In this document: in pieces, positions 10,601 through 13,600 of the stretch
How the letters are laid out: the number at the start of each line of letters is the position of its first letter
Position numbering within the stretch: position 1 is the first letter of the stretch
IMG/VR virus record: IMGVR_UViG_2522572021_000002
Coordinates: 1-36,025 of that record
Direction: 5' to 3' (one strand)
Length of the DNA stretch: 36,025 bases
From: a virus
Taxonomy: Duplodnaviria > Heunggongvirae > Uroviricota > Caudoviricetes
Position numbers: made by a program

Positions 10601-13600
10601 TCCCCTCCGCGCCCTGGGTAAATGCCGAACCACCACGACAGCATGGTACCAGCAGGATCCCCGCGTTATTCGGGATATACGGGAGCAGTTTTTTGGCAAT
10701 ATGTAAACCCTGGCCGACACAGCCGTACTGCCCTTTGCTCAGGTCAGCCCTCGGATGATTCAGCGTACTCATATCCTGCACATCATGCAGACAGTGGTCA
10801 GCCGGAATAATATCGTTATATCTGCAGGCAGCCCCGCCCGGCGTCACTGTACTGCGGCGCGCCAGCTGTTTAATGCGCGGATCCGGAGCATCGTATGAAT
10901 CCGGCAGCGGAAGCCCTTCACCGTAAGCCATGGCATTGGACTGCCCGGCCAGTACGATGACGTAGTACCAATCCGGCTCAGATGAAGGGCCGACCTGTGG
11001 CTCTCCTTCAATAGCCACCGCCTGCATCAGTGTGTACGGCGTAATGGCAACCGGTCCGCCGTATGGCTGCCAGCCCTCTTTCAGTTTGTGTGTCAGCTTT
11101 TCCGCAAGGTCTGACGGCGACGCCGCCCTGACAACATCGTAATGTTTAATCGACATCGAATTTCTCCCGTGTAGAGGAACAGAGTTAAAAAGCCGGAAGC
11201 GGAATCAAATCACAGGATGACCATCTGCCAGTGGCAGGTCATAAAAAAAAGGCTGCGCAATGCGCAGCCAGAACTCACAAGGAAAATGATAAAAGGAATA
11301 ACACTAGTGATGTACGCATGGCGCCTCCCGCTAAGTTCTGCAATGATCAAACAGAACTCGCTACGTGCCCTTAAAACTCGATCATTTAGCCCCTCCAAGG
11401 AGGATTCACCATGCGGTTGATTTTTTAATAAACAGTAAACAAAAAAGTCAAGAATTATTCATTCTGTTCTTTCATCATCGGCCACAGCAATACCACAATG
11501 CCGCAGACCAGAGCGCCATCAGTCAGTACCAACATTATCCTGCTGGTGAAATCCATCATCACCATCACTAAAAGCAGGATCACAACAGCAAGCAGACACA
11601 GTTTATAAAACAATGTTCAGAAAACGCATTCAGCATGCCTAAGGTTCTATTCCTACGAATAGCCAACTTGCAACTTGAAATATTATTTATGCAGCCAATT
11701 AAATTCTGGTCCTTACAATATCAACCTGAAGATTCTTATCTTGTGCTGATTGATAAATGACAAACCTTTTACTACCTGCATTGAAAGAAGTAGACAAAAC
11801 CAGACAATTATCATAACGAGCAAGAACATAATACCAACCATCATTATAATTAATCATTTCATATTCTTTCTTAAACTGTGGTTTGTAATATCCTGTCAGA
11901 AATGAAAAAAGCCAAAAATATGCCACAAAAGCAATCATCACAATCTCAAAAAAATGTTTTTTTATAAATGGCTTATCATAGAAGCATGATACCGATAAAA
12001 ATCGCCCATAAGATCTTATCGAAATTGTAACCGCCAGCGCAATCGCTGCTGACAGTAGCAAAAGAGGTACCTGAATCTTCTGTCTCAATATAGAAAACTC
12101 AATAATTGCCGGCACAAACAATAATTCCACAGCAAAATAAAGGCGAAATACATTTAGCTCTTGCATAGAATGTTTTCTTTTCACTGCGAAAAAGAATACA
12201 ACACCAATACCCCAACCGATAAGAAATATAGCAATGACGATAACTGCAAAAAATAAACTTCTGGCAACATCATCAACACCTGCACCTACAATCCACCATG
12301 GGAAGCCGTAGTAAAAAGAAGTACCCCATCCATAGAAATAAGCACTCCCCCATCCAAGGCATCCCATGTAGGCAATAAAAAGTGAAGAACTCCTGAGCAG
12401 CGCACCATCCTTCATAACCACCCCAATACAAGATGATAACATTGGCTTACAACTCATAACAAAAGCAATTCAATGCCGTCAAGAGGTTACAGGCTAAAAA
12501 AACTCTATTACATAGCAGCCAGCATGTTTACCGTACAAGTACAACTCAGGGCATAAAAAAAACCCACTCGGCAGCGGGTTTATACATTTTTTACAACATA
12601 CCAAATTTGCATGAAGTATATGGCTTTTAATCCAGTTTTGCAATATTTTGCTGTAAAAATGCTGCCTTTTGTTTTGAACGTGTTCTCGTCACAAGCAATA
12701 AAGCATCACTATCAAGCTGTAGAAAAATGTGCTTCATTGCAACCCAGCGTTCAGTAAATGTCTCGGACCAGTTTTTTGTTGTCACTCCCACCAATGATGC
12801 CAGTGTCTGGTATTCATAGGCCTCACGCCCTGCAAGTTCGCTCTTCACATCCTGTGCAGCCAGCCAGATTAACGTCTTCAGGCGATCCAGTGTCTTACCT
12901 GCAATTTTTCTGTTACTTAACAAATCTTTAAACTCGCTCCATGCCCATTGCGTTATGGTGACCTGATGCCCCCATCGAACGCTTTCGCTGTAACACCAAA
13001 GCAACCATGCTTTCTGATGTTCATCGAGAGACAAAACCGCGCGGCGCCATGAAGAGGTTGAGAATTCAACCGGGCTGACCAAAGCAATGGATGAACCTTT
13101 TGCGTACGACTGCTTACCGGAAGTCGGCGTATTATCCAGCGTAATCATCTTGCCAGTTACCACATCCAGAATGCGCGGCTTCTTTCGTTTGTATGTACCA
13201 GTATCAAATTGTGCATGCTCCTGCCAGGCTTCGAGCTGGCCTTTCGTTGCTCCGTTCAAGTCAGCAGTAGCTGCCATAAGTTGCTCACGAACATACTGTA
13301 AATATTGGGTATTCATGCAGTAAATCCTTTCTATATTTTGGCATAATTCTTCAACATTCGGTAATCGTTCAAAACCGAATCGGGGAAACGACATAAGCAC
13401 AGGAGCCCCCAGCGACAGCGAAGGAGTTCTGATATATAAGACTCAGACATCATTCATTCCCCGGTTCTCCAATATCTGTTTCACTCATCATCCATAACTA
13501 CCTGTAATTGCCCCCCCTTTTTTTGTAACAGTTCTTATATTGCTATATAGAATAGCCATTACTAATGCATTTAAATTTAATAAAATAAAAATTATAAAAA

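Follow-up and report, generated by a model that had tools for sequence, protein, structure and literature searches.

What does a lambda-like prophage keep between its late antiterminator gene Q and its lysis genes, in the slot where Shiga toxin (Stx) phages carry stxAB, and does the cargo found there serve the phage or the bacterium? The locus that raises this question lies in IMG/VR record IMGVR_UViG_2522572021_000002 (Caudoviricetes), of which positions 1 to 36,025 were analyzed; this whole stretch of 36,025 nucleotides is referred to here as the window. A preliminary description of this DNA gave the order, in the direction of phage late transcription, as Q, a terminator, an open reading frame (ORF) for a multi-pass membrane protein, a possible short single-pass peptide, another terminator, nanS-p, and the holin gene S. 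We find this order on the minus strand, with a pR'-like promoter between Q and the first, tR'-like terminator. The same description recognized no family for the membrane protein. Here the protein proves to be a member of the catalogued TfpB/STM1630 family, and we tentatively favor a role for it on the side of the bacterial host.

Several lines of evidence place the membrane protein in this family. First, it is 100% identical to CPT_434_68 (gp68, "putative membrane protein") of the classical phage 434. Second, PF27470.1 (Pfam "TfpB") is precomputed for its 100%-identical cluster representative and for all 103 homologs in a large protein database, the newest PGAP annotation names relatives "STM1630 family protein," and PHROG 1521, a group of unknown function, matches with an E value of 2e-154. 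Scanning the 252-aa protein with Pfam and NCBIfam sets that lacked the PF27470 model gave nothing significant, and family-wide scans for weak matches in Pfam, PHROGs, and PADLOC gave no consistent annotated relative. Third, profile searches reach, over the full length, a Moraxella protein (JGI "protein tfpB," E 4e-64) and the Salmonella protein P0075 (E 5e-83), both of which align with the window protein without large gaps. P0075 corresponds to STM1630, since its gene is 717 bp long and adjoins sseJ and since NSSMLLAYLGGLGWG is encoded by the primer published for the knock-out. The profile search extends the family, again over the full length and at 20–30% identity, to Neisseria, Mannheimia, and Moraxella. 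The family is small, with 55 representatives at 50% identity among 1.84 billion proteins, and it is rare in deposited phage genomes, with a relative in only 3 of 50,697. The cassette is near-identical in 682 of 5426 complete Escherichia coli genomes, and some part of the query is matched in 1236; the family is present in roughly one-eighth to one-quarter of complete E. coli genomes, often in multiple copies. The element is already known both as a sequence and as a family, and our analysis re-identifies it rather than adding a new kind of element.

The ORF of 252 aa (11699..12457, minus strand) exists as previously described, but its length probably overstates that of the protein. All homologs begin at the equivalent of M15, in the motif M-x-D-x-x-L-L-R/K-N-S-S, and therefore the most likely product is a protein of 238 aa that starts at 12415 and is encoded by 11699..12415 (minus strand); RefSeq places the start at 12442 (247 aa). 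The M15 codon is preceded by GGGGTGG. The five or so transmembrane (TM) helices, the aromatic/Gly-rich segment, and the soluble tail of the preliminary description are borne out by hydropathy, which shows a soluble polar tail of about 60 residues behind five hydrophobic segments, four of them strong and one weaker and aromatic/Gly-rich, and by structure prediction. A first AlphaFold model, made from 24 close homologs, was poor (predicted local distance difference test [pLDDT] 58.6) and was superseded by a better one made from a 46-sequence alignment that reaches Neisseria, Moraxella, and Mannheimia (pLDDT 76.9, predicted template modeling score [pTM] 0.63). The latter predicts five long helices, at residues 3–36, 47–79, 89–111, 116–136, and 155–181, and a C-terminal five-stranded beta-domain at 187–232. 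Averaged over the 46 sequences, the number of Lys plus Arg residues is 1.3 at the N-terminus, 2.2 in the loop between helices 2 and 3, and 3.2 in that between helices 4 and 5, and only 0.09 and 0.7 in the loops between helices 1 and 2 and between helices 3 and 4. Because this distribution follows the positive-inside rule, we infer a cytoplasmic N-terminus followed by five helices. In this topology the highly conserved aromatic/Gly-rich TM1 (GxxGWGxxxxxGWG) and the aromatic/acidic loop YYGFPWW..G.DD.ARSL would face the periplasmic side, and the C-terminal beta-domain of about 60 residues would be periplasmic.

The pattern of conservation suggests what kind of protein this is. The family-invariant columns are A25, Y26, W30, G37, W40, A51, R52, S53, L54, G71, G175, Y196, and F218, and the window protein has all of them. 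It also contains the family motif W..AY.YGW(G/A)....YG(F/Y)(P/S)W, an ARSL box, and, at the C-terminus, the YY(V/I)L...F domain. The invariant residue types across the family are A, Y, W, G, F, and L together with the pair R52-S53; no acid, His, Cys, or Lys is invariant, which argues against an enzyme. Between alleles that are 45–68% identical, the proportion of nonsynonymous differences (pN) is 0.18–0.35 and that of synonymous differences (pS) is saturated at 0.66–0.82, and the ratio of the corresponding rates (dN/dS) is at most 0.19 wherever dS can be computed. The gene is real and under purifying selection; it is accessory cargo as had been proposed, and is neither a housekeeping gene, nor a phage structural gene, nor a pseudogene remnant. 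Its product is a polytopic membrane protein without a conserved genetic partner, and no neighbor is conserved across the contexts of the family that are described below. A PDB profile search with the membrane protein gave 0 matches, and none of the solved structures, viral models, or defense models resembles it.

The second step of the answer concerns the DNA in which the gene travels. A relative is encoded at 188 loci in IMG/VR, and the best 80 of these, all with an identical protein, were mapped for the extent of their similarity to the window. The left homology break falls exactly at 12559, in the T-tract of tR', in about 49 of the 80 loci, and the breaks on the right fall at 11389/11404, at 11132, or at 10551, the insertion point of the element ISEc20. 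The upstream Q gene among these 80 loci is of the Q82/434 type (PF06323) in 31 and of the lambda type (PF03589) in 34, and in none of the mapped loci does a toxin gene separate Q from the cassette. Downstream there is either an intact nanS-p of 616 aa or, directly, a pinholin and a signal-arrest-release (SAR) endolysin. More divergent alleles occupy the same position: one in Yersinia enterocolitica, 45% identical, directly follows a Q of a third type (PF06530), and one in E. coli 00-3076 follows another PF06323 Q, with about 80% DNA identity over the matching third of the query. As the preliminary description had it, the cargo is AT-rich, with a GC content of 0.32–0.42 over 11450–12500, which covers the cargo ORFs, versus 0.51–0.62 in the phage genes on either side. 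In sum, several features expected of a moron, an additional gene unit in a lambdoid genome as Hendrix and colleagues use the term, were found, namely sharp junctions at 12559 and at about 11400/11132, varied Q and downstream modules, deviant GC content, and absence from phage 434B. In that phage the whole Q-to-lysis region is replaced by DLP12 sequence, and the phage is viable and forms plaques (PMC9119081). Because 434B is viable without the region, and because so few deposited phage genomes carry a relative, the gene is dispensable for lytic growth. We conclude with confidence that the interval from 11.4 to 12.56 kb is a discrete, horizontally exchanged cargo module that consists of the TfpB/STM1630 protein and a DUF3927 peptide and adjoins an STnc100-like small RNA (sRNA). 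Given the left junction at tR' and the STnc100-like element on the right, it is well supported that the two ORFs sit where stx2AB sits, between tR' and STnc100/nanS-p, in agreement with the placement in the Stx slot proposed before.

The borders of this module and its second gene can be described as follows, all on the minus strand. Q (12627..13316, with the ORF open to 13400) is a late antiterminator of the Q82/434 type (PF06323, E 1e-91), labeled "bacteriophage antitermination protein Q" in RefSeq and "Q82-like" in the phage 434 record. The tR'-like intrinsic terminator occupies 12560..12581 (−13.7 kcal/mol, z −3.2) and has its T-tract at 12559; the phage 434 record also annotates a terminator at this position. 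The small hydrophobic ORF had been read as a single-pass peptide of 36 aa. It is instead a protein of 52 aa with a TTG start (11455..11613) and two hydrophobic segments, which matches PF13064 (DUF3927) with 53 bits against a cut-off of 25, residues 7–50 aligning with positions 7–49 of a model of 53, and PHROG 1470 ("TciB-like," E 2.5e-17); RefSeq and the phage 434 record annotate it as well. To our knowledge, the label "TciB" rests on similarity rather than on experiment. This DUF3927 partner is confined to the 434-type cassette. We considered it as an obligate partner of the membrane protein and rejected the idea, the small ORFs downstream of other family members being unrelated.

The second intrinsic terminator (11269..11251, fold z −3.7) probably terminates an sRNA that belongs to the STnc100/PasD group. 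The candidate (11240..11444, minus strand) matches the Rfam model RF02076 (STnc100) over its full length (1–206 of 206; E 9e-8) with 41.4 bits, which is below the gathering score of 47. It overlaps an ORF of 62 aa (11210..11398) that is called "membrane protein" in the phage 434 record. The distance from stx2AB to the STnc100 downstream of it is 75 nt in Stx2 phages (PMC12370729), strain EDL933 has 11 copies of STnc100, almost all with transcript reads (PMC5331693), and STnc100 is related to PasD sRNAs, which occur in the vicinity of Q and LpxR (bioRxiv 10.64898/2026.05.13.724894). The leader between pR' and tR' (12551–12620, minus strand) resembles STnc240 only weakly and without significance (28 bits, E 0.22; gathering score 55). 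The corresponding short pR'–tR' transcript of Stx phages is a regulatory sRNA, and by analogy the leader in the window may also be a stable RNA.

The third step is to ask where else the family occurs, and the contexts seen are phages in only about half of the cases. Family members lie on 156 plasmids, 106 of which are Shigella plasmids, including the invasion plasmid pWR100. The pWR100 member in Shigella flexneri M90T (locus L016, 6001–6717) is 57% identical to the window protein and annotated as hypothetical, and the record of a Shigella dysenteriae 1617 plasmid names a family member "TfpB protein." On enterotoxin plasmids of porcine enterotoxigenic E. coli (ETEC), a member stands about 870 bp from eltAB, in divergent orientation, and near STb. 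These ETEC members (loci L010–L013 and L017; e.g., pUMNK88_Ent; 2987–5714) are 59% identical and have EAST1 nearby and insertion sequence (IS) elements around them, and the similarity of the plasmid DNA to the window begins 71 nt upstream of the start codon. The ETEC copy may be what is left of a late phage region in which the heat-labile toxin genes once stood. In Salmonella, STM1630 lies between the effector genes sseJ and steB. Citrobacter rodentium has a member at the same chromosomal locus as STM1630, but there it adjoins lpxR. In uropathogenic E. coli (UPEC), an island carries a member just downstream of sfaX, and E. coli Nissle has a pseudogene copy near the iro cluster. In Moraxella the member is inside a type IV pilin gene cluster, and in Mannheimia and Neisseria the members stand among housekeeping genes. 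The family holds prime sites in enteric pathogens: the Stx slot of lambdoid prophages, the invasion plasmid of Shigella, the DNA flanking the heat-labile toxin genes, and the sseJ/steB islet of Salmonella.

The C. rodentium context touches a second cargo gene of the window, which encodes the lipid A deacylase LpxR (13791..14750, plus strand; PF09982, E 7e-40, and RefSeq) and is transcribed away from Q. In C. rodentium (locus L015, 3863–5717) the TfpB-family gene stands directly next to a split lpxR, in divergent orientation and without an intervening Q, and each has 72–74% DNA identity to the copy in the window. Either the two cargo genes of the window may once have formed a single islet, or C. 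rodentium may have lost Q at this place.

The prophage itself is decayed. Nearly identical DNA (100% over 1251 bases) is found at ybhC in E. coli O145:H28, where it forms a defective lambda-like prophage, and the related-strain prophage is also without an immunity and replication region. Of the genes nanS-p, S, and R, which had been placed after the cargo, nanS-p and the endolysin gene are broken by IS elements. The N-terminal part of nanS-p (10506..11156, minus strand; DUF1737 and SASA esterase, from domain matches and RefSeq) is cut by ISEc20, an IS110-family element whose transposase gene (9331..10527, plus strand) was recognized from RefSeq and a domain scan. The C-terminal part (DUF6645; RefSeq and domain scan) follows at 7856..9055 (minus strand). 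Between this remnant and S lies an IS3-family element (6506–7683, plus strand), for which the RefSeq annotation of a related strain gives a programmed-frameshift transposase. S itself (5941..6147, minus strand) encodes a class II, P21-type holin (PF04971, E 1e-32). Two inverted copies of another IS3-family element of about 1.3 kb, at 4229–5538 (plus strand) and 17885–19194 (minus strand), bound a 12-kb stretch with S, nanS-p, the cargo, Q, LpxR, and the nin genes, which is inverted relative to O145 strain RM9872. The endolysin gene is cut by an IS3-family copy into parts at 5378..5941 and about 19194–19292, and Rz (19277..19726, plus strand) has come to lie on the opposite strand after the IS-mediated inversion. 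No tRNA genes were found in the window. The membrane gene is intact although the endolysin gene is destroyed and the prophage is riddled with IS elements. A defined phenotype would explain why an intact gene is retained even in decayed prophages.

The fourth step is to ask when the gene would be expressed. A pR'-like late promoter, TTGCAA-17-TATACT, was found by a consensus scan at 12615..12643 (minus strand), where it overlaps the Q stop codon; the box is conserved in the E. coli 00-3076 prophage and from its position would act as the late promoter. Q-dependent read-through after induction would then necessarily transcribe the membrane gene. Candidate promoters of its own lie at 12433..12482 (minus strand), one consisting of TTGACG (12482–12477) with a weak −10 element and the other of TTGTTA-18-TGtTATCAT (12462–12433), and the TTGAC box is kept upstream of the gene in the ETEC, 00-3076, and Yersinia alleles. 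A weak promoter of this kind may transcribe the gene in the lysogen. A moron would have its own promoter and terminator and be expressed from the repressed prophage; besides these candidate boxes, the module has the terminator at 11269..11251. We also tried to derive an own promoter from the mapped STM1630 promoter and rejected this, there being no upstream DNA homology and the Salmonella −10 element lying about 215 nt upstream.

Taken together, these findings lead us to favor, tentatively and at somewhat less than an even chance, the hypothesis of a role in lysogenic conversion. The protein would be of benefit to the bacterium in animal hosts and would act non-enzymatically at the inner membrane and in the periplasm, its gene being read through from pR' and possibly transcribed from a weak promoter of its own. 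The use of the cargo gene would lie with the bacterial host, in animal-associated niches, and not with the lytic cycle of the phage, and the protein would probably act by binding or oligomerizing in the inner membrane and periplasm, not by catalysis. We prefer a host-side role because relatives occur in host-side contexts, namely on Shigella plasmids, beside eltAB, sseJ/steB, sfaX, and lpxR, and in the Moraxella pilin cluster, and because of what has been reported on STM1630. The latter is bound by H-NS and expressed in medium that induces Salmonella pathogenicity island 2 (SPI-2) and in macrophages, its promoter is inactivated in the ST313 lineage, its signature-tagged mutants were reported to be attenuated in calves and chicks, and strain 4/74 replicated more in macrophages once the gene was deleted (PMC6785131 S1 text). 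It is also in the gene set that is co-regulated with SPI-2 (PMC2639726).

Four points weigh against this hypothesis. First, the STM1630 phenotypes are modest and partly contradictory; in particular, a deletion was hypermotile in a screen (PMC4219756), whereas a clean, non-polar deletion did not reproduce the phenotype (PMC4534456), and we have set hypermotility aside as a functional clue. Second, promoter-like sites in the region are no commoner than in shuffled sequence, and expression in the lysogen is only inferred. Third, the association with virulence loci may only reflect the AT-rich, horizontally acquired DNA that these loci share. Fourth, the gene is repeatedly placed directly behind three unrelated Q families, perhaps because late expression coupled to induction is what matters, and this would fit a role on the side of the phage better. 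This placement is the strongest point for such a role, and the strongest point against it is that about half of the contexts are not phages.

The alternative that survives best is superinfection exclusion or another anti-phage function, as put forward in the preliminary description. The inner-membrane protein, alone or perhaps with the DUF3927 peptide, would exclude superinfecting phages by blocking DNA entry or would abort the infection. We regard this alternative as unlikely. Known exclusion proteins, such as P22 SieA, T4 Imm, and HK97 gp15, are likewise small and located in the inner membrane. Other points in its favor are that the protein is membrane-located prophage cargo, AT-rich, sporadic, and horizontally exchanged, and that its gene is dispensable for lytic growth and has stayed whole although IS elements have wrecked the rest of the prophage. 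However, no positive evidence for it was found. No PADLOC model matches the protein, with 0 matches for all three small ORFs, stray PADLOC matches family-wide were confined to 3 of 46 members with a best E of 0.014, and there is no annotated PHROG match. Many relatives are found outside phages beside virulence or housekeeping genes: those of Mannheimia and Neisseria are of the latter kind, and the enterobacterial ones adjoin toxins, effectors, and fimbriae, not defense islands. The co-regulation of the Salmonella member with SPI-2 and the failure of the DUF3927 partner to be conserved with the family also speak against exclusion.

A broader proposal, to which we likewise give only a small chance, concerns the family as a whole. 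The TfpB/STM1630 proteins could be an unrecognized class of mobile-element inner-membrane effectors, for which the recurrent placement as first gene behind three unrelated Q antiterminators is functional. Induction or host cues would alter the envelope through them, for example so as to block the DNA entry of competing phages or to re-set surface appendages, and Shigella, ETEC, Salmonella, UPEC, and Moraxella would have co-opted them next to toxins, effectors, and pilins.

Still less probable, in our view, is a late-cycle accessory, the product of the first gene of the Q-dependent late transcript, that modulates the membrane before lysis, for example by way of holin timing, membrane energization, or release. 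The position directly after tR' under three unrelated Q families and, in many loci, directly before the pinholin and SAR-endolysin cassette is in keeping with this idea, and the Gly/aromatic-rich TM1 is compatible with oligomerization. The non-phage contexts speak against it, as does the fact that 434B lyses without the membrane gene. Lambda, too, lyses without such a gene. Moreover, the protein has no match among holin, antiholin, spanin, or lysis families in Pfam or PHROG, a true holin gene is present at 5941..6147, and in the window the membrane gene has stayed intact while the endolysin gene was destroyed.

We consider it very unlikely that the protein is an accessory of surface appendages (pili, fimbriae, or flagella), as the name TfpB would have it. 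The Moraxella member inside the type IV pilin cluster, the UPEC member downstream of sfaX, and the hypermotile STM1630 deletion of the screen all point in that direction, but most members are not near appendage genes, and the motility phenotype was not reproduced with the non-polar deletion. Finally, a functionless hitch-hiker or decaying remnant, which the defective, IS-riddled prophage and pseudogene copies elsewhere such as that of E. coli Nissle might suggest, deserves hardly any credence and was already disfavored, since purifying selection is strong across alleles of 45–68% identity, the motifs are kept out to Neisseria, Moraxella, and Mannheimia, the cassette is near-identical in hundreds of complete E. 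coli genomes, and neither a dN/dS near 1 nor frequent frameshifts were seen.

The module and its membrane protein can be compared with systems that are already known. The closest is phage 434 (GenBank OL657226), with 99.7% DNA identity from NinI through Q to nanS-p and the same order of LpxR, YlcG, Q82-like Q, terminator, membrane protein, DUF3927 peptide (CPT_434_69, "TciB"), terminator, SASA esterase, and pinholin. Phage 434 is intact and viable, whereas in the window IS elements disrupt nanS-p and the endolysin gene, and the segment has been inverted with respect to the structural genes. With an identical gene and its region-less derivative 434B, phage 434 offers a tractable genetic system. 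STM1630, of 238 aa and 46% identical, has the same N-terminal motif and C-terminal domain and also lies in AT-rich, horizontally acquired DNA, but it occupies the chromosomal sseJ–steB islet rather than a phage, and an own promoter about 215 nt upstream serves it, with expression in SPI-2-inducing conditions. The Moraxella TfpB protein is homologous over its full length, at about 23–29% identity, with the same predicted architecture; in contrast, its gene lies in the pilin gene cluster with no phage nearby. We know of no demonstrated function for it, which further weakens the case for an appendage role.

Two further comparisons concern position and architecture rather than descent. The module shares with stx2AB the slot after Q, pR', and tR' and before STnc100, nanS-p, and the lysis genes, together with Q-dependent read-through; the proteins themselves are unrelated, that of the window being an integral membrane protein and Stx2 a secreted AB5 toxin. 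The virulence-associated proteins of the MgtC type, which we adduce as an analogy only, share with the present family a small polytopic inner-membrane build of five helices and a small soluble C-terminal domain, horizontal acquisition in pathogens, and induction in macrophages in Salmonella. No sequence similarity was detected, the window protein giving no match to the Pfam MgtC model even at E ≤ 1, and the protein differs from MgtC in that its soluble domain is predicted to be periplasmic and all-beta.

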